64,000 bases of DNA, taken from positions 1-64,000 of the IMG/VR virus record IMGVR_UViG_3300009008_000023; one strand, given 5' to 3'. Below, piece by piece: positions 5,770 through 34,725 of the stretch. The stretch is from a virus (Duplodnaviria > Heunggongvirae > Uroviricota > Caudoviricetes). How positions within the stretch are numbered: position 1 is the stretch's first letter; each line of letters starts with the position of its first letter. The notes beneath the pieces were generated by a model. That model did not search any database and was not told the origin of the DNA. It worked only from the letters and a program-made list of their open reading frames with translations. The position numbers and the translations under genes were made by a program.

Positions 5770-6102
5770 TTATTTTATATTCTCTAGTGGATTTAATTCA
5801 CTACCACCTGTATTACTCACTTGTAGATAACTACTGTTATTTAGTTCAGCATATGCTTTAATATGTGTCACGACCTGATTAGCAATTACTTCAGCTAACT
5901 CATTATAAAAATCACGTAATGCAGAGATAGCATCATTATAATCTTCTTGATCCATATCACCAATTGCTAAACTTGTAGCTAACGGAGGTTTATGCAACAG
6001 TGTAATTATATTGAGCCATATACTGCCGGGAGTCGGTGTATTTTCTGAGCCGCCCACTCCATAGAGTATTGCATTCTTTAATACACCTTCATCTAATGCC
6101 AT
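5770..6102 (-). CDS. hypothetical protein (110 aa)
   Basis: ORF in baseplate cluster. Confidence 0.35.
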   Translation of the reverse strand: MALDEGVLKNAILYGVGGSENTPTPGSIWLNIITLLHKPPLATSLAIGDMDQEDYNDAISALRDFYNELAEVIANQVVTHIKAYAELNNSSYLQVSNTGGSELNPLENIK

Positions 6103-23308: not shown

Positions 23309-23474
23309 ACATCCGACAGAGCAGGAAATTAAAAAGTGGTGCTCATGTAATATGTGTGGGCATCACTTTATTAAAGCTCCGAAAAAGAGCTCTAACCCCA
23401 TTTTAAAAGGAAAAAGATTTATTTGTCCAGAATGTAAATGGGAAAACACTCGTATGGTTCCAATAAATTATTAA
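23283..23474 (+). CDS. hypothetical zinc-ribbon protein (63 aa)
   Basis: CSCNMCGH...CPECK. Confidence 0.3.
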   Translation: MLGEQKLSKHPTEQEIKKWCSCNMCGHHFIKAPKKSSNPILKGKRFICPECKWENTRMVPINY

Positions 23475-23482
23475 GGAGATAT

Positions 23483-24739
23483 ATGGAATTAGTAATTACA
23501 ACAGAAAAATTTCCAATAAAACTATGGGCACGTGAGTCAGAAATAGAAGAAAGTGCATTACAACAATTAAAAGATGTGGCTAATATGCCATTTATACATA
23601 AGCATATTGCTGTAATGCCTGACGTACATACAGGTCTTGGTGCAACCATTGGGGCTGTTATTCCTACTAATGGAGCAATAATTCCTAGTGCAGTAGGCGT
23701 AGATATTGGGTGTGGTATGCACGCTATCAAACTCAATCTTACGTATAAAGCATTTATTCAACACTTAGTAAATAACGTGTTTCCTAACATTGTTTACAAT
23801 GACGATCTTACTCGCAATCTAATTGAGTCTGCAATTCCGCACGGACGAACAGATTATGGTGGAACAAATGATGTAGGCGCATGGCCAAAACAACGTATTC
23901 CTTTATCTGTAAAGGCAGTATACTATGAGAAACTTAATTTCGAAGTTACGAAGCATGAGATTCTTCGCAGACACCCAGGCTTACTTGCAGGATTTGTTAA
24001 CAGCGTTCGTCATCTTGGCACTCTTGGCACTGGCAATCATTTCATCGAATTAGCTAAAGATGAGAGTGATAGGGTGTGGCTTATTATCCATTCGGGCTCA
24101 CGTGGAATAGGTAATAGAATAGGTACATACTTTATTAAGCTTGCAAAAAAGATTAATAAGAAATGGCATATCGATCTACCTAATCCTGATCTAGCGTACT
24201 TCCCACAAGACACTCAAGAGTTTAAAGACTACTGGGAATGTATGAAGTGGGCACAAAAGTTTGCTCGCCTCAATCGTGAGCTAATGGCACAAAGTGTGCT
24301 AAATGAACTTTGGATAGCTTCTAATGAAATAGAAAAAGAGTATGACTGCCACCATAATTTTGCTGAGTGGGATCACCAAGGGAACACTAATTTTATAGTA
24401 ACACGTAAAGGAGCCACTCGTGCCAAGAAAGACGAGATCGGAATCATCCCTGGTTCAATGGGTGCAAAGTCATATATTGTTACCGGTAAGGGCAACATGG
24501 ATTCTTTTGCTTCTTGTTCTCACGGCGCAGGTAGAAAAATGTCTCGAAAGGTGGCTAACGCTACCTTCACAGCCGAAGACCTGGAAGAACAGACGCGTGG
24601 AGTCTCTTGTAGAAAAGATGGAGACTTATGTGATGAAGCGCCTGGAGCGTACAAGTCAATTGATGAAGTTATATCCTTACAAGAAGATCTAGTTGACATA
24701 AAACATACACTTAAACAGTTTGTTTGTGTGAAAGGCTAG
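23483..24739 (+). CDS. rtcB: RNA-splicing ligase RtcB (3'-phosphate/5'-OH RNA ligase)
   Basis: MPDVHTGLGATIG, GTLGTGNHFIE, CHHNF and SCSHGAGR signature motifs; RBS AAGGAG before ATG 23483. Confidence 0.9.
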   Translation: MELVITTEKFPIKLWARESEIEESALQQLKDVANMPFIHKHIAVMPDVHTGLGATIGAVIPTNGAIIPSAVGVDIGCGMHAIKLNLTYKAFIQHLVNNVFPNIVYNDDLTRNLIESAIPHGRTDYGGTNDVGAWPKQRIPLSVKAVYYEKLNFEVTKHEILRRHPGLLAGFVNSVRHLGTLGTGNHFIELAKDESDRVWLIIHSGSRGIGNRIGTYFIKLAKKINKKWHIDLPNPDLAYFPQDTQEFKDYWECMKWAQKFARLNRELMAQSVLNELWIASNEIEKEYDCHHNFAEWDHQGNTNFIVTRKGATRAKKDEIGIIPGSMGAKSYIVTGKGNMDSFASCSHGAGRKMSRKVANATFTAEDLEEQTRGVSCRKDGDLCDEAPGAYKSIDEVISLQEDLVDIKHTLKQFVCVKG

Positions 24740-24740
24740 T

Positions 24741-25190
24741 ATGGATAACACTGACACAGAAATGAAACGTAAATCAAATAACTTTGCGATTGAACAATTG
24801 AACCAACATCCAGTAAAGTTTACTGTTAATTTTTTAGGTAAGTACTCAGGAGCGTATTTAGATTTAAGTGCTGTTAATAAAGAAGCTGCTGTTTGGCAGA
24901 TAACTTTCTTAGCTCACTTAGTAAATTTCCCTGTACTAGCAATGATGTATGAACAAGATCAATTTACACCGATAATATTTGTTACGCCTTCAGAAACGTT
25001 GCGTGAAAAATATAAGAACATACCCACAAAATTTGATGTGTGGATGAATGACAGAATCCAACAGGGTAACCTCCCAATGGTAATAGAATCAATTGAGTTT
25101 CTAAATGATGAGATTGATAAAGAGTTTGGAAAGCAACCTCGAATGTTTAAAAAAGCTGAAGTTGAGCGTGATCCCAAATGCGAAAATTAA
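24741..25190 (+). CDS. hypothetical protein cotranscribed with rtcB (possible RtcB accessory factor)
   Basis: Start overlaps rtcB stop; no recognised motif. Confidence 0.35.
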   Translation: MDNTDTEMKRKSNNFAIEQLNQHPVKFTVNFLGKYSGAYLDLSAVNKEAAVWQITFLAHLVNFPVLAMMYEQDQFTPIIFVTPSETLREKYKNIPTKFDVWMNDRIQQGNLPMVIESIEFLNDEIDKEFGKQPRMFKKAEVERDPKCEN

Positions 25191-25819
25191 AAATAATCTC
25201 TGGTGGACAAACAGGTATTGACCAAGGTGCGTTAGATGGACTGGTAAGTTTTTCACGAAATCTTATTACTGAAGGATATGATCATTATCTTGATGGTGCA
25301 GACCCTTTACAAATATACGGGATGCTGGGTATTGGAGGGACAGCACCTAAAAATTATATGACAGAAACAGGGCCTGCATTTTTCTTGCAGACTGAGTACA
25401 AACTAAAGGAGTCTTATAGTTCTTACTATCCCGTACGAACTGAACGTAATGTAATTGATGGAGACGGTACATTAGTATTCCAATTTAAAGAATCAAGGGG
25501 TTGTAGACTAACAATTAATTTGTGTAAGAAACACAAAAAACCTTACTTAGTTAGCCCTGAATCAATTGATGAAATCTATAATTGGATAAAAGAAAATAAT
25601 ATAGAAGTTTTAAATGTTGCTGGGCATCGACAAAGCGCTTTTGATAAGCGAGACATGCACTACCATGCCAAAATAAACATTATGAAACTTCTGGGTTATA
25701 TGTACTTTGGCTCTTCATTTATGAAAAGAAGTGAGTTTCAAGGCGCTAGTTCATTACCTTACAAAAAGGAGCCAGACAATGGCAAAACTACAGCCGATGA
25801 TGAAGTTGACAAACATTGA
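25178..25819 (+). CDS. SLOG-family (YpsA/MoCo-carrier-like) nucleotide-binding protein
   Basis: N-terminal ISGGQTGIDQGALD motif characteristic of the SLOG/YpsA fold. Confidence 0.4.
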   Translation: MRKLKIISGGQTGIDQGALDGLVSFSRNLITEGYDHYLDGADPLQIYGMLGIGGTAPKNYMTETGPAFFLQTEYKLKESYSSYYPVRTERNVIDGDGTLVFQFKESRGCRLTINLCKKHKKPYLVSPESIDEIYNWIKENNIEVLNVAGHRQSAFDKRDMHYHAKINIMKLLGYMYFGSSFMKRSEFQGASSLPYKKEPDNGKTTADDEVDKH

Positions 25820-26000
25820 AGTGAAGAATAATAGAGTTGTTGGAACTGATAAAGACGGAACCTCTTGGACTCAATTTTTAAGGTTTCCCAAGACTAAGGG
25901 TATCAAGTGCACGATATGTCGTGAACCTATGGTGGAAGGAAATACGTACTGGCAGGACTCAGCTCGTAATTGCGTGTGTGATCATCACGTTTCGTTTTAG
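25731..26000 (+). CDS. hypothetical Cys/His zinc-binding protein
   Basis: CTICR...CVCDHH; start may be an internal Met. Confidence 0.3.
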   Translation: MSFKALVHYLTKRSQTMAKLQPMMKLTNIEVKNNRVVGTDKDGTSWTQFLRFPKTKGIKCTICREPMVEGNTYWQDSARNCVCDHHVSF

Positions 26001-26169
26001 GAGATTATGACAATCTATATCACGCTATGTGCTTGTGGAAACACACGTACTAGTAAACAGGAACCCAAACACAATGAGCGATGTAAAAAGTGCAAACGTG
26101 TTATTGCTGACATCGAACCTTTTGACGGAACTAAAAAAGAGTTCTTTAGTTTAACGGGAGATGAATTAG

Positions 26170-26406
26170 ATGATTAACAAGATTCATGAGTGGCTCCAGA
26201 AAAAATGGGGCGATAAAGACTACTATAAAGACCTGGCTTTTTGGGGCGTGTGTGTTGTATGCTTGATAGCTCTTTGTGTAGTGGGTCTTTTTATTGCCTT
26301 TGTAGCATGGTCTTTCACCGTTCATTTCATATTTGGATGTGTCGGTATTGTTTTAGGACTATGGCTACTTGCTATAGCACTCTTTAAACTTGCCGAAGAG
26401 CTGTAG
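26170..26406 (+). CDS. small membrane protein
   Basis: Two hydrophobic helices. Confidence 0.35.
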   Translation: MINKIHEWLQKKWGDKDYYKDLAFWGVCVVCLIALCVVGLFIAFVAWSFTVHFIFGCVGIVLGLWLLAIALFKLAEEL

Positions 26407-26577
26407 GAGGTTAAGTGTTTAGACAAATTCATCACTTTATTCAAAAACAAACAGGTGATTACACCTATTACAAAAACCCTCGAAAAATAGGAGAGTGGTT
26501 ATTTTCATTAGTTCTGTTTGTAGCTATAGTTCTTCTTTTGACCTATGGCTTACAGATTGAAGTAATATAAGGAGTAT

Positions 26578-27333
26578 ATGAGTATTAAGTATTTGTCATT
26601 CAGTGGAGCTCAGTCATACGAACACTGTCCAGCACAATTCGCACATAGACGAATCTGGAAAACCCCTATAGACAAAGCTCCGCCGAGTGACCCGATAATC
26701 CTAGGCAATAATTTTCATTCAACAATTCAGAAAGAAGCTGAACTTCAAACACCAATTAAAACAGCTTCCCAAGAAACACAAGAATGTTACAAAGAATTAG
26801 TTGACCTATGGGAAGGCTCACAGAATCAAAAGCGTCTTGATGCCTTAACGCACAAGGTTATGATTCCTGAGTTTGAGTTTAACCTTGTTAATAAACCGTG
26901 GCTCTTTTTAAGAGGGTTTATTGACATAGTGGGAATAGATAAAGATGGTATTTTATCTATTATAGAAATCAAGACTGGTGGAAAGCCTTATCCTAAGAAG
27001 TACATGACTCAGTTAGATCTTTATGTAGCCGTGTGGAATTACATGGTTGCTAATAAGATGCACAAGCCTGAGATGAATGTCTTGGCGACACGTAAAGTGT
27101 TATTAATGGCTACTACCAAAGAACCTCGTAAAATTATTATGAGGGAGTACGAGTTAGAAAAAGAGGATCAGATATCTCAGCTACCTCTGCATAGAATGGA
27201 AAGGGTGTATCAGGCAATTATGAAAGCTATTCAAGAAGACAGCTTTCCTGTTAATCCCGGATTTTTATGTAGTTGGTGTGACTATAAAGATGTTTGTAAA
27301 CCATACGGATCACTCCACAGTTTAACTAAGTAG
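26578..27333 (+). CDS. PD-(D/E)xK nuclease, Cas4/RecB-like with C-terminal Cys cluster
   Basis: GFIDIVGIDKDGILSIIEIKTG core motif; CSWCDYKDVC C-terminal Fe-S-like cluster. Confidence 0.65.
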   Translation: MSIKYLSFSGAQSYEHCPAQFAHRRIWKTPIDKAPPSDPIILGNNFHSTIQKEAELQTPIKTASQETQECYKELVDLWEGSQNQKRLDALTHKVMIPEFEFNLVNKPWLFLRGFIDIVGIDKDGILSIIEIKTGGKPYPKKYMTQLDLYVAVWNYMVANKMHKPEMNVLATRKVLLMATTKEPRKIIMREYELEKEDQISQLPLHRMERVYQAIMKAIQEDSFPVNPGFLCSWCDYKDVCKPYGSLHSLTK

Positions 27334-29746: not shown

Positions 29747-30292
29747 ATGACCAGATTTAAAGCAATAATGTTGCTTGTAGCCATGGCTCTCTTCGGCACT
29801 GCTTCTGTCTCTAACGAGATTGAAGTATACATTTGTCAGCCGGAATTAACTTGGGGACTCGATCTTGATTTTCCTGAGTGTGATCGGCTGTACATTCCTA
29901 CAGCAGAGTATGACGTTAAGATTACGGCCTACTCTAGCACAACTGGGCAATGTGATGCAGACCCACATATTACAGCATCTTTGACTAAGCCAGATAGAGC
30001 AACGATCGCGCTTAGTAGGGACTTTCTCAAGAAATTTGAGAAAGAGTACAAAAAGAAAAACCCTAACCATACAGCACCCTTTGATTGGGGTGATATAGTG
30101 TGGATTGATTACGGAAATGGTCGCAGACATGGACCATTTGTCGTAGAGGATACTATGGCAAAGAGAAAGAAAATGTGGGTAGATTTGTGGCACGAGTCCA
30201 CACGAGAAGCGAAAGAACATGGGTTACGGAAAGGAAAATTACTCTCTTATTACCGTGATCCGAATAAATTAATCCTATCGGACCTCATTTGA
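29747..30292 (+). CDS. secreted 3D-domain (MltA/YuiC-like) protein
   Basis: Signal peptide; TAYSSTTGQCDADP...GDIVWIDYGNG...VVEDTMA conserved-Asp pattern of the 3D domain. Confidence 0.5.
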   Translation: MTRFKAIMLLVAMALFGTASVSNEIEVYICQPELTWGLDLDFPECDRLYIPTAEYDVKITAYSSTTGQCDADPHITASLTKPDRATIALSRDFLKKFEKEYKKKNPNHTAPFDWGDIVWIDYGNGRRHGPFVVEDTMAKRKKMWVDLWHESTREAKEHGLRKGKLLSYYRDPNKLILSDLI

Positions 30293-30316
30293 GGTCCGGT
30301 GGGCAACTTTTCTAAT

Positions 30317-30336
30317 TTTTCCGGTATAAGATTTTT
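30317..30336 (+). promoter_or_regulatory. phage promoter motif (tttttCCGGTATAAGATTTTT) driving the 0.9-kb ncRNA locus
   Basis: Consensus core GGTATAAGA preceded by T-tract. Confidence 0.5.
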
Positions 30337-31245
30337 ATCGTCCAGTATTCTACCTCGTGTGGAGTGCTGGTGATCGGGTGTATGAGCTCGTTAGGATAAG
30401 GATGGTAACATCCCCAAAGATTTGGGATTAGTCCCCCAGGTCGCTTTTTCTAGCCTTCGTGGCCGTGATGATTAAGCCCGATTATAAATTATGTCTTGTC
30501 ACTTCAGACCACCCTGGGCAACGCTGATGGGTATTATTGGTTGGTAAGTGAGGCTTCTCTACGGAGGAGTTGAGTAGGTGAGGGAGCATTTCCAAAGGCT
30601 TAGCGGCTGGAGGGGTGCCGACGAGCCTATAGTGAGGCATCAAGGTAAAGTTCGAGTCGGTTGGTTCCGGCAAGAGCATAAGCCAATCAAGCAGCTAACA
30701 CGGATGGAGACGTTCGGGGGCTGTGCGATAGATAAGTGAACCAACGCTCATCAAGGGTAGGTGTGCTATTCCTGGGATCGAAAGTTCTGGGAGGCGCAAG
30801 GCCCAGTACCTATTCTGACTACTACTTTAATATAAAAGTTCCAATTGAACAGGAAATGTTTATGCGAAAAGACGCTAAAACCTGGTGCCCGGTTGAAGCG
30901 CATCTTAGCTCTATAGTCTAGGGCGGGATGTTCATCAAAGTTGACTACGCAGTGAGCCTTCGGGCAACGAGCTGCGGGGGATGGTTCGGCAAGAACCAAC
31001 CCTGAACCTTAAAAGAGTTTCCTTGATGCGGTCAGCTGCCGCCGATAGGACCCGCTTTTGGGAAAAGAGGCTTCGCCGTAAAAGATTGATTGGCTTAACC
31101 AATTGTCATCGAACCACTACGATTCCCAACCCTTCGGGGGAAAGAGCGTGGATAAGGGGCTAAGGGGAGACCCGTACGGCCAGTGCGCATAGCACGGTAA
31201 TACCAAAGGTGGTTCTAAAAATGCTGTAGTCTCAGGCATTTTTTT
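30331..31245 (+). ncRNA. candidate large structured non-coding RNA (about 0.9 kb), family unknown (GOLLD/ROOL-class candidate)
   Basis: No ORF over 77 aa on either strand; GC content above neighbours; bounded by promoter motif at 30321-30335 and terminator at 31217-31247. Confidence 0.45.
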
Positions 31246-31247
31246 AC
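31217..31247 (+). terminator. rho-independent terminator
   Basis: AATGCTG...CAGGCATT hairpin plus T7, immediately before the promoter motif. Confidence 0.6.
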
Positions 31248-31271
31248 CTTAAAAATGGTATAAGATAAATG
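31240..31271 (+). promoter_or_regulatory. phage promoter motif (tttttACCTTAAAAATGGTATAAGATAAATG)
   Basis: Full extended consensus; follows terminator. Confidence 0.6.
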
Positions 31272-31302
31272 TACAACCTTCGATTATAACTTAGGAGGAC
31301 TC

Positions 31303-31506
31303 ATGCAGTGGTTTTACAATTTACTCTGCGCGATAGGACTCCATTCTTGGAAGAGGCACATTGACCACACTACTGGCAATTTCGATGAGTGGGTGCGAGT
31401 GAAAGTGTGTCTCAACTGTGGAGCGGAGTTTGTGCAGGCGACTCGTTCAGGGCCTTGGATCACCTGGGACCAGTATTACCAGCATCTTGGGTTGAAACGG
31501 AACTGA
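31303..31506 (+). CDS. hypothetical protein (67 aa)
   Basis: ORF after promoter motif at 31250. Confidence 0.3.
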   Translation: MQWFYNLLCAIGLHSWKRHIDHTTGNFDEWVRVKVCLNCGAEFVQATRSGPWITWDQYYQHLGLKRN

Positions 31507-31514
31507 GTATGAAT

Positions 31515-31549
31515 GCCGGGGTGACGGAATTGGTAGACGTAGCGGACTT
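31515..31549 (+). tRNA. tRNA-Leu(UAA) exon 1 (acceptor 5', D arm, anticodon stem to U34)
   Basis: GCCGGGGTGACGGAATTGGTAGACGTAGCGGACTT resembles the bacterial tRNA-Leu 5' half; pairs with 3' half at 32267..32315. Confidence 0.7.
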
Positions 31550-31650
31550 ATGTAAATGAGTGCCCTGTAAGAAATTACAGGAGTAGAACTTCTCAAATTC
31601 GGGGAAACCTGTAAAATGGCAATCCCGAGCTAAGCTTAGAGTAGACGTAA

Positions 31651-31679
31651 ATAAATAGCTTGACATTTGAGTATTCCGT
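31651..31679 (+). promoter_or_regulatory. consensus sigma70 promoter (TTGACA-17 bp-TATAAT) driving the intron HNH ORF
   Basis: cTTGACAtttgagtattccgtatgTATAATtag; perfect -35 and -10 hexamers, 17-bp spacer. Confidence 0.7.
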
Positions 31680-31694
31680 ATGTATAATTAGTAC

Positions 31695-32168
31695 ATGGCA
31701 AAACAACGAAAATACACAGATGACCAGCTTAGATCAGCAGTTAAGTCAAGCCGATCAATACGTCAAGTTCTTGGTAAACTTGGACTAGCTCAAGCAGGTG
31801 GAAACTATACTTCGGTTACAAACCAGATCGCTAGGTTGCAACTTGATTCATCTCACTTTTTGGGCCGTGGGCATCGAAAAGGATCAACAACTCCAGTTGT
31901 TCCGAAACGCCCATTGTCTGAAGTGTTAGTAAAGCATTCTTCATATCAATCGTATAAGCTTAAGAAGCGATTGATTAAAGAGGGTTTGCTAAAACAAAAG
32001 TGTGATAGTTGTAATTTAGTAACTTGGTTACAAACAGACATACCTTTAGAACTGTACCATAAAAACGGTGTAAAGTCTGACAATCGAATTGAAAATCTCC
32101 AACTGTTGTGTCCAAACTGCCACGCTCTTACAAACACGTATAGAGCAAAGAACTCTAAGAAAGTGTAG
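31695..32168 (+). CDS. HNH endonuclease (intron-encoded, within tRNA-Leu intron)
   Basis: C-terminal ENLQLLCPNCHALTN HNH motif. Confidence 0.75.
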   Translation: MAKQRKYTDDQLRSAVKSSRSIRQVLGKLGLAQAGGNYTSVTNQIARLQLDSSHFLGRGHRKGSTTPVVPKRPLSEVLVKHSSYQSYKLKKRLIKEGLLKQKCDSCNLVTWLQTDIPLELYHKNGVKSDNRIENLQLLCPNCHALTNTYRAKNSKKV

Positions 32169-32266
32169 AGACTTTACGGGAAGGCTCTAAGGCTTGAGCG
32201 CTATGAGCAAGAGAAAGTCCAGACCATCAAACAGTTTAAGCTGGTAGCGAAAGCTATAGTGGTACG

Positions 32267-32317
32267 AAAATCCGCTGGCTGTAAGGTCGTACGGGTTCGA
32301 CTCCCGTCCTCGGTACC
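32267..32317 (+). tRNA. tRNA-Leu(UAA) exon 2 (A35 to 3' end, long variable arm, A73)
   Basis: AAAATCCGC + variable arm TGGCTGTAAGGTCGT + T arm ACGGGTTCGACTCCCGT + CCTCGGT-A-CC. Confidence 0.7.
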
Positions 32318-34628: not shown

Positions 34629-34705
34629 GGCTCTATAGCTCAGTCTGGCGAGAGCGGCGGTCTCTAAAACCGTGTCAGTCGTGGGTTCAAATCCCACTGG
34701 GGCCT
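34629..34705 (+). tRNA. amber-suppressor tRNA, anticodon CUA (tRNA-Sup)
   Basis: Acceptor GGCTCTA/TGGGGCC; D arm GCTC...GAGC; anticodon stem GCGGT/ACCGT; loop C-U-CUA-A-A with U33 and A37; T arm GTGGGTTCAAATCCCAC. Confidence 0.65.
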
Positions 34706-34725
34706 CTTATCACAAAGGAGTAAGT

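Follow-up and report, generated by a model that had tools for sequence, protein, structure and literature searches.

GOLLD RNAs of phages are among the few natural RNAs known to build large cages that are free of protein. The cages are hollow and made of RNA only, their function is unknown, and expression of the RNA has been reported to rise during phage lysis (PMC12286853, PMC12990946). The solved examples differ in size, with 14 subunits in the cage of the env-38 RNA, 12 in that of the Streptococcus agalactiae RNA and 10 in that of the S. agalactiae 3' domain alone, and the stoichiometry varies with the helices present (PMC12286853, PMC12990946). The 3' domains make up the ring of the cage and the caps consist of 5' domains, while the linker, together with any tRNA it carries, points inward; the env-38 linker J13/15 is disordered inside the cage. 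The 3' domains are conserved and the 5' domains variable, and GOLLD genes typically lie in a tRNA-island context (PMC12286853, PMC12990946). Here we describe a locus in a 64,000-nucleotide (nt) stretch of DNA from a virus of the Caudoviricetes (IMG/VR record IMGVR_UViG_3300009008_000023, positions 1 to 64,000; the window hereafter). We are confident that positions 30337-31246 of its + strand are the gene for a GOLLD-family RNA of ~910 nt, which by homology is likely to assemble into a cage beside a tRNA island. The RNA is a divergent member of an already described family and has been overlooked by standard annotation.

Like the env-38 GOLLD (RF02032; PDB 9MEE, 14-mer; PMC12286853), the window RNA has two domains, more than 800 nt and a domain boundary near nt 420. 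The 3' domains of the two RNAs run in the same order, namely first hairpin, linker, pseudoknot, hairpins, GUGGAUAAG and a terminal loop UGUARUCUCAG, and both RNAs have an A/U-rich internal linker, are of phage origin and adjoin tRNAs. The window RNA differs from env-38 in three insertions in the 3' domain, in one inner hairpin instead of two in the P21-like branch, and in a 5' domain that is not detectably similar. GOLLDs that carry a tRNA in the linker, including a Mycolicibacterium RNA with tRNA-Phe (PMC12990946) and the loci L016, L028, L073 and L078, have the same 3'-end subtype as the window, AAG-stem-UAAS-hairpin-GUACGR; however, these loci reach the Rfam cut-off (160-185 bits), whereas the window RNA does not reach it and has no linker tRNA. 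The Streptococcus agalactiae GOLLD (700 nt; PDB 9L0R, 9LMF; PMC12990946) forms a cage despite missing or altered helices and with a single symmetric L21-L21 kissing loop, and the window RNA likewise has a single hairpin with a palindromic loop in the P21 region, although the two RNAs, compared by description only, differ in 5' domain and in length. ROOL RNA occupies the same niche near phage tRNA islands and is presumed to form cages, but its sequence and secondary structure are unrelated, and it has no match in the locus at E<=10.

The Rfam GOLLD model RF02032 matched positions 30754-31238 (+) over its full length (model positions 1-416 of 416) with 81.3 bits, at an E-value of 4.3e-21 in a local search and 1.8e-19 over the whole 64-kb window, and it was the sole non-tRNA family at E<=0.01. 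The curated gathering cut-off of the model is 150 bits, which is an operational annotation threshold and not a structural feature. Because the match lies below this value, an Rfam scan with default, curated thresholds misses the locus and reports only tRNAs in the window. The shortfall in score results from the three insertions together with a pseudoknot strand that is out of register in the cmscan alignment. The sequence-only reading of this DNA had proposed a large ornate noncoding RNA of the GOLLD, ROOL or HEARO kind, and the full-length match of the 3' half supports this candidate. The comparison with Rfam by Infernal that it had suggested yielded the GOLLD match, and a search of 30200-31700 at E<=10 gave no match within 30337-31246 to ROOL, HEARO, OLE, group I or group II introns, RNase P, 6S or transfer-messenger RNA (tmRNA); the single intron match of that search begins at 31540, downstream of the locus. 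The alternative of a novel ribozyme or scaffold was not borne out, the family being already described as RF02032.

The sequence signatures of the family point in the same direction. The 3'-end motif pair GTGGATAAG...TGTARTCTCAG retrieved at least 119 viral contigs, and the window carries this signature pair as GUGGAUAAG followed, after 68 nt, by UGUAGUCUCAG. An Rfam scan of 19 loci from the motif-pair search identified 15 as GOLLDs above the cut-off, with 158-323 bits; L011, L121, L123 and L126 have the GOLLD 3' signature, yet they too fall below the curated cut-off. Against the 158-323 bits of typical GOLLDs, the sub-threshold 81.3 bits of the window indicate a divergent member that standard annotation misses. 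The family signature sequences are present in order in the window, with AAAG-NNGACUA at 30933-30947, the hairpin with a UAACC loop at 31088-31104, GUGGAUAAG at 31148-31156 and UGUARUCUCAG at 31225-31235. Every major element of the family model is found in the 3' domain, in family order.

Relatives of the locus are few. Neither a DNA nor a protein relative was found in the public phage record collection, and a search of IMG/VR via a neighbouring protein found nothing. Four ENA metagenome scaffolds (L127-L130) carry the locus in identical form. The neighbouring protein of 181 amino acids (aa) led to one usable diverged relative on a Logan contig of 30 kb (L131), where the protein is 64% identical. 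The gene order of L131 is the same as in the window: ThyX, the 181-aa gene, ~1.18 kb free of open reading frames (ORFs) and an intron-containing tRNA-Leu. The alignment of the two sequences spans all ~910 nt with ~74% identity and takes in both promoter motifs as well as the terminal hairpin; the L131 RNA scores 73 bits with the GOLLD model (E 1.9e-17). Additional searches were performed for further lineages. A 16-mer pattern from the 5' domain gave chance matches only; a DNA pattern for the subfamily found one ordinary GOLLD in metagenomes and none in viral or genome collections; and protein-guided searches with the 181-aa protein, ThyX and a 150-aa protein left L131 as the sole usable second lineage; apart from two further relatives represented by gene calls, the other matches were cellular or non-syntenic. 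The RNA and its two domains are delimited as follows.

30337-31246, + strand: whole GOLLD-type RNA of ~910 nt, conserved end to end in L131, noncoding, with a structure of 212 pairs.
30337-30753, + strand: 5' domain of 417 nt, structured, its sequence specific to this phage lineage.
30754-31238, + strand: 3' domain, matching RF02032 positions 1-416 here and scoring 73 bits in L131.

To evaluate the fold, RNAalifold was applied to the alignment of the window and L131. The consensus reached -248.8 kcal/mol, compared with -137.1 +/- 8.7 in 60 column-shuffled alignments, which places it ~13 standard deviations below, and it contained 30 compensatory pairs against 17.0 +/- 3.1 in the column shuffles; the single-sequence fold of the window had a z-score of -2.8. 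The long-range 5'-3' pairings of this global fold (e.g. columns 52-59 with 660-667) were dropped, as they clash with a family hairpin and are invariant, and domain-wise folds and the family architecture were used in its place. A curated structure was assembled from the family architecture in the Rfam alignment for the 3' domain and from a domain-only consensus fold for the 5' domain. Across the window and L131, 99.5% of the 422 cells of its 212 pairs are paired. Changes on both sides affect 26 pairs, compared with 13.1 +/- 2.5 in shuffles (the value was reached in 0 of 500), and their number fell to 2-5 when the 3' partners were slid by 1-3 columns. The 3' domain contributes 117 curated pairs, none of them truly broken; both sides differ in 15 of these pairs in the alignment as it stood and in 19 once gaps are corrected. 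Correction of gaps that MAFFT had misplaced gave 5 compensatory pairs in the 5' hairpin, 3 in the pseudoknot and 2 in the inner hairpin of the branched helix. The sequence-only reading had left itself open on the matter of covariation, and here the compensatory changes between the window and L131 do support a structure.

The elements of the 3' domain, in order, are these.

30754-30816, + strand: first hairpin, 23 pairs, with a bulge GGCCCAG at 30800-30806; four pairs changed on both sides in L131.
30817-30881, + strand: A/U-rich variable linker of 65 nt, counterpart of GOLLD J13/15; poorly conserved, 27 nt longer in L131.
30882-30889, + strand: putative linker-closing strand CUGG(U)GCC, complementary over 7 pairs to the bulge 30800-30806, at the family position.
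30894-30899, + strand: 5' strand of the pseudoknot, UGAAGC, pairing with 31070-31075.
30902-30929, + strand: lineage-specific inserted hairpin of 9 bp between the pseudoknot strand and AAAG-UUGACUA; 2 pairs changed on both sides.
30949-31003, + strand: two conserved hairpins, UUCG-capped at 30949-30975 and with loop GGCAA at 30976-31003, corresponding to hairpins 2 and 3 of the model.
31007-31062, + strand: branched helix whose inner hairpin 31028-31042 has the loop UCAGCUG at 31032-31038; its stem GCGG/CCGC becomes GCAC/GUGC in L131, with 2 compensatory pairs.
31070-31075, + strand: 3' strand of the pseudoknot, GCUUCG, just before AAAAGAUU and the UAACC hairpin, like the ']' strand of the model.
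31088-31104, + strand: hairpin GAUUGG-CUUAA-CCAAUU, family consensus UGgUuggccUAAccaAc; one compensatory pair.
31111-31117 with 31209-31215, + strand: long-range helix GAACCAC/GUGGUUC, enclosing 31118-31150, GUGGAUAAG, 31158-31181 and 31183-31195.
31118-31150, + strand: hairpin extended by a UUCG-capped stem; 2 compensatory pairs in that stem.
31148-31156, + strand: the GUGGAUAAG signature, a family element.
31158-31181, + strand: GAGA-capped hairpin flanked by UAAG and GUACGG, an arrangement common to a minority GOLLD subgroup.
31183-31195, + strand: lineage-specific inserted hairpin; 2 compensatory pairs.
31217-31246, + strand: terminal hairpin with the family's signature loop UGUAGUCUCAG at 31225-31235, then seven T at 31239-31245.

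The putative linker-closing helix (30800-30806/30882-30889) consists of seven complementary pairs that are invariant in L131 and hence without covariation; by eye, the same arrangement is present in typical GOLLDs, as UGAUAGAC/GUCUAUCA in env-38 and GAUCGGG/CCCGAUC in L078. The pseudoknot is UGAAGC/GCUUCG in the window and CUGAGU/ACUCAG in L131, so that 6 of 6 pairs are kept and 3 are changed on both sides. This pairing replaced a first candidate, GGCGGG/UUCGCC, which was less well supported. The cmscan alignment had set the 5' strand of the pseudoknot 30 nt too far downstream, unpaired, at a loss of score. The pairs of the hairpins at 30949-31003 are retained in L131. Three features of the 3' domain are lineage-specific, namely the insertion at 30902-30929, which is not present in the typical GOLLDs inspected, the UUCG-capped extension at ~31126-31143 and the hairpin at 31183-31195. 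Two hairpins picked out from the sequence at the outset proved to be real, GATTGATTGGCTTAACCAATTGTCATC at 31088-31104, which is conserved across the family, and GTGCGCATAGCAC at 31183-31195, with its two compensatory changes in L131. A third proposed pairing, TTGGTTCCGGCAAGAGCATAAGCCAA, is possible, but the alternative GTCGG/CCGGC is equally so, and invariant sequence cannot choose between them.

The 5' domain has a consensus fold of its own, with the following elements.

30337-30374, + strand: 5'-terminal hairpin, -19.0 kcal/mol in the window and -15.6 in L131.
30400-30413, + strand: GUAA-capped hairpin of the consensus fold.
30419-30442, + strand: hairpin of the consensus fold.
30443-30587, + strand: multi-branch region of the consensus fold, including GGGCAACGCUG (30516-30526).
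30644-30684, 30692-30723 and 30731-30752, + strand: hairpins of the consensus fold.

The 5'-terminal hairpin is kept despite a near-total change of sequence in L131; among its 10 shared pairs, 5 differ on both sides. RNAalifold on the 5' domain alone gave 91 pairs, 12 of them changed on both sides and none broken between the window and L131; with the terminal hairpin, the domain has ~100 pairs, 17 of them compensatory. Its length of 417 nt lies within the ~300-420 nt expected of a structured GOLLD 5' domain and fits the domain split of env-38 (1-420 / 421-833). A 5' domain of the env-38 type occurs in about half of the fetched GOLLD loci, and the window domain has only the short motifs GGGCAACGCUG and UAGGAUAA in common with it. 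To judge from sequence comparison, the window-type 5' domain is without known relatives among GOLLD 5' domains.

Several observations weigh against the reading of the locus as a GOLLD gene. First, the score of 81.3 bits is below the curated cut-off of 150. Second, a profile hidden Markov model (HMM) of ~50 env-38-type 5' domains did not detect the window, an HMM of the window and L131 detected no other GOLLD locus, and a covariance model (R1) of the most conserved env-type 5' subdomain found nothing in the locus; with both the profile HMM and the covariance model lacking a match, the idea that the 5' domain is homologous to that of env-38-type RNAs was rejected. Third, the UUCG-capped extension takes the place of a GAAA-type loop, the inter-subunit tetraloop in the solved structures, and the kissing contact of L20 with the linker flank that occurs in solved GOLLDs was not identified in the window RNA. 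Fourth, the hairpin 30419-30442 inside the 5' domain is terminator-like and is followed by GCUUUUUCU. It is kept in L131, where the U-run is interrupted, and the U-run is predicted to pair within a multi-branch helix, so the hairpin may attenuate transcription or be merely structural. Fifth, there are only two distinct lineage sequences, the window and L131, so the compensatory counts come from a single pair of sequences, the same pair from which most of the structure was derived. Finally, in two further relatives from one JGI sample, represented by gene calls only, the 181-aa gene is directly followed by called ORFs of 82 and 152 aa. Either these relatives lack the RNA, as would be expected of a dispensable accessory cassette, or the ORF calls are spurious; a protein search for homology of these ORFs to the downstream genes of the window did not return them.

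Under one explanation, the locus would encode a novel large structured RNA unrelated to GOLLD, and the resemblance of its 3' half would be due to convergence or chance. This would account for the low RF02032 score, for a 5' half without relatives among GOLLDs, and for the result of a search with the 3'-domain sequence only, which gave just one weak match (L180, E 7.8e-7) among 126 GOLLD loci. Against it stand an E-value of 1.8e-19 over the full model length, the elements AAAG-NNGACUA, UAACC hairpin, GUGGAUAAG and UGUAGUCUCAG in the right order, a pseudoknot and a putative linker-closing helix at the family positions, and the same phage and tRNA context, and we consider it very unlikely indeed. 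GOLLD 5' domains are described as variable, and therefore an unmatched 5' domain fits the family and does not exclude membership. Under another explanation, the locus is a decaying, nonfunctional GOLLD relic, as the low model score, the apparent loss of a linker tRNA (with a T-arm-like hairpin only in L131) and the possible absence of the RNA from two related contigs might suggest. Decay is difficult to reconcile with the 99.5% of 422 cells that are still paired at ~26% divergence, with at least 26 compensatory pairs and no genuinely broken helix, and with a promoter motif, terminal hairpin and signature loops that are kept in both lineages; we regard a relic as very improbable. The assignment to the GOLLD family accommodates the observed family membership of the 3' domain, its conservation and noncoding nature, and a structure backed by compensatory changes.

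A third explanation is a protein-coding region whose reading depends on an unusual start or on reassignment of a stop codon, and a tRNA with a CUA anticodon, of amber-suppressor type, at 34629-34706 inside the tRNA array (labelled Pyl by ARAGORN) could be cited in its favor. However, no frame is open across the locus under the standard code or with any one stop codon reassigned (at most 123 of ~304 codons). Mismatches between the window and L131 fall on the three codon phases as 88/78/69 in the locus, with no third-position excess, compared with 43/32/94 in the adjacent protein gene. The indels between the two sequences have lengths of 5, 5, 13, 23, 4, 1, 3, 2, 1, 2 and 5, mostly not multiples of three, and ORF statistics over the whole window gave no sign of TAG recoding. 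Thus, the conserved coding frame under an alternative start or code that the sequence-only reading had wanted checked was not found; a coding origin is refuted as far as sequence analysis allows, and we give it practically no credence.

The GOLLD gene is set off from its surroundings by the following signals.

30274-30313, + strand: terminator-like hairpin with T-rich tail of the upstream 181-aa gene, with a 13-bp stem of which 8 pairs are G-C; kept in L131.
30323-30331, + strand: promoter-like motif GGTATAAGA with the -10-type hexamer TATAAG at 30325-30330; TGGTATAAGA in L131.
31257-31265, + strand: next GGTATAAGA copy, start of the downstream unit, outside the RNA and marking its 3' boundary; kept in L131.

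The ORF-free stretch follows the 181-aa gene, whose stop is at 30292, and is bounded downstream by an ORF at 31303; the longest ORF on either strand is 77 aa (minus strand, 30766-30999), in agreement with the initial description of ~915 nt without any longer ORF, which holds for 30337-31246 on either strand. The G+C content, described then as higher than that of the flanks, is indeed 0.46-0.54 over 30300-31199, compared with 0.36-0.44 in the 1.2 kb upstream. The promoter placed at the start of the locus corresponds to GGTATAAGA at 30323-30331, a recurrent motif that the window contains 17 times in exact form, compared with an expectation of 0.77. Every copy is oriented like the genes next to it; usually a hairpin and an A/T-rich spacer precede the motif, and N3-ATG often comes after it. 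Example sites are 5323-, 18728+, 30323+, 31257+ and 61315+. The motif reads like an extended -10 promoter element, TGnTATAAG, and is likely to be the main promoter type of the phage. Transcription of the locus would start near 30337. The terminator at 30274-30313, listed by a simple terminator scan at 30274-30303, sets the 181-aa gene apart from the RNA unit. At the 3' end of the locus, where a hairpin and seven T had been pointed out, the 9-bp hairpin 31217-31243 leads into a run of seven T (31239-31245); the same scan passed over it on account of its 9-nt loop. The terminal hairpin 31217-31246 probably doubles as an intrinsic terminator.

From these elements and by homology to the solved GOLLDs, we infer the following scenario for the transcript ends, oligomerization and biological role. 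The RNA would be transcribed as its own unit from the phage promoter motif (-10 at 30325-30330) to its own terminal hairpin and U-run. It folds into two domains, a conserved 3' domain of family layout and a lineage-specific structured 5' domain; in the 3' domain, the bulge of the first hairpin would pair across the A/U-rich linker, followed by the pseudoknot, the conserved hairpins, GUGGAUAAG and the UGUAGUCUCAG loop. The RNA would be made during infection and, by analogy with its relatives, would probably self-assemble into an RNA-only multimeric cage, encoded beside the tRNA island. Its role might then be tied to the adjacent tRNA and translation island, in phage tRNA supply or translation.

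In the L21 region, the subunits of solved GOLLDs contact each other through symmetric kissing of loops, and the published covariation argument for L21-type contacts is a switching between palindromes (PMC12286853, PMC12990946). The loop of the inner hairpin is UCAGCUG in the window and CGGCCA in L131, a change of palindrome from AGCU to GGCC that represents one event in two sequences. The loop 31032-31038 is thus a candidate for a symmetric inter-subunit kissing loop like L21, although this is suggestive only. Rewired contacts may include this single AGCU->GGCC palindromic kissing loop, the UUCG extension in place of a GAAA-type loop, and the two extra hairpins. We put forward, tentatively and with doubts that outweigh our confidence, that the RNA belongs to a subfamily of GOLLDs whose ring-forming 3' domain carries a non-homologous 5' cap and that it may, with contacts so rewired, build a cage of other stoichiometry or geometry than the 10-, 12- and 14-mers.

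The linker also bears on the history of the RNA. Among distinct 3' ends of the fetched GOLLDs, a linker tRNA accompanies 4 of 7 of the type with UAAG-hairpin-GUACGG after GUGGAUAAG, compared with 2 of 69 others. No tRNA was found in the window's linker (30817-30881). The GOLLD linker of L131 contains, at ~6029-6049, the hairpin UCGUGGG-UUCGAAU-CUCACGA, which resembles a T-arm but lies outside any full tRNA and has no counterpart in the window; it is plausibly the relic of a linker-embedded tRNA. If this is true, the loss of the linker tRNA, with its T-arm left in L131, would record an interconversion of cargo-bearing and cargo-free GOLLDs.

The locus shows that standard annotation overlooks divergent GOLLD members, and it extends the family by a lineage that combines the conserved 3' ring domain with an unrelated-looking 5' domain and three insertions. 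Cage stoichiometry shifts with the helices present, and therefore natural variants of this kind test which contacts are essential. The gain is incremental, the locus being neither a new kind of element nor by itself a clue to GOLLD function. The neighbourhood, with RtcB, a PD-(D/E)XK nuclease, ThyX, a split tRNA-Leu, 22 tRNAs and a suppressor-type tRNA, points to a role related to tRNA or translation.

The GOLLD locus lies directly upstream of an intron-containing tRNA-Leu and an array of 22 tRNAs, which is the tRNA region that the sequence-only reading had placed next to it; the label of a 3D domain given to the 181-aa gene (29747-30292) was not confirmed, as Pfam had no match at E<=0.001. 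Homologues of the 181-aa protein comprise three phage relatives and two weak cellular proteins only. A group I intron interrupts the tRNA-Leu(UAA) gene (31515-32315) at the classical U34/A35 position.

31515-31549: 5' exon of the split tRNA-Leu(UAA).
31550-32266: its intron, ending in G.
32267-32315: its 3' exon.

An HNH endonuclease ORF (31695-32168) lies inside the intron. The split tRNA was missed by ARAGORN and by the Rfam tRNA model, and the Rfam group I model matched only the 5' part of the intron (23.8 bits, E 0.0016). L131 has the same split arrangement. Between the second promoter motif and the tRNA-Leu, the window has a Cys-containing ORF of 67 aa (31303-31506) without a Pfam match; it is not in L131, where the promoter leads straight into the tRNA. 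Upstream, 23438-27333 encodes an RtcB RNA ligase, a circularly permuted YpsA/SLOG protein and the PD-(D/E)XK nuclease. These genes precede dCMP deaminase, ThyX and the GOLLD gene, in an order that is kept in related contigs, and the RtcB and ThyX genes are of phage type. Together with the tRNA array, the genes of the RtcB region look like an RNA-repair and translation island.

Other RNA genes were observed near typical GOLLD genes. Pistol ribozymes occur within a few hundred bases of them in unrelated viral contigs, at 472-533 of L180 (10 nt away) and 837-912 of L024 (~360 nt), and tmRNA genes lie near GOLLD genes at 5276-5693 of L001 (~110 nt) and 9813-10209 of L010 (~2.5 kb).

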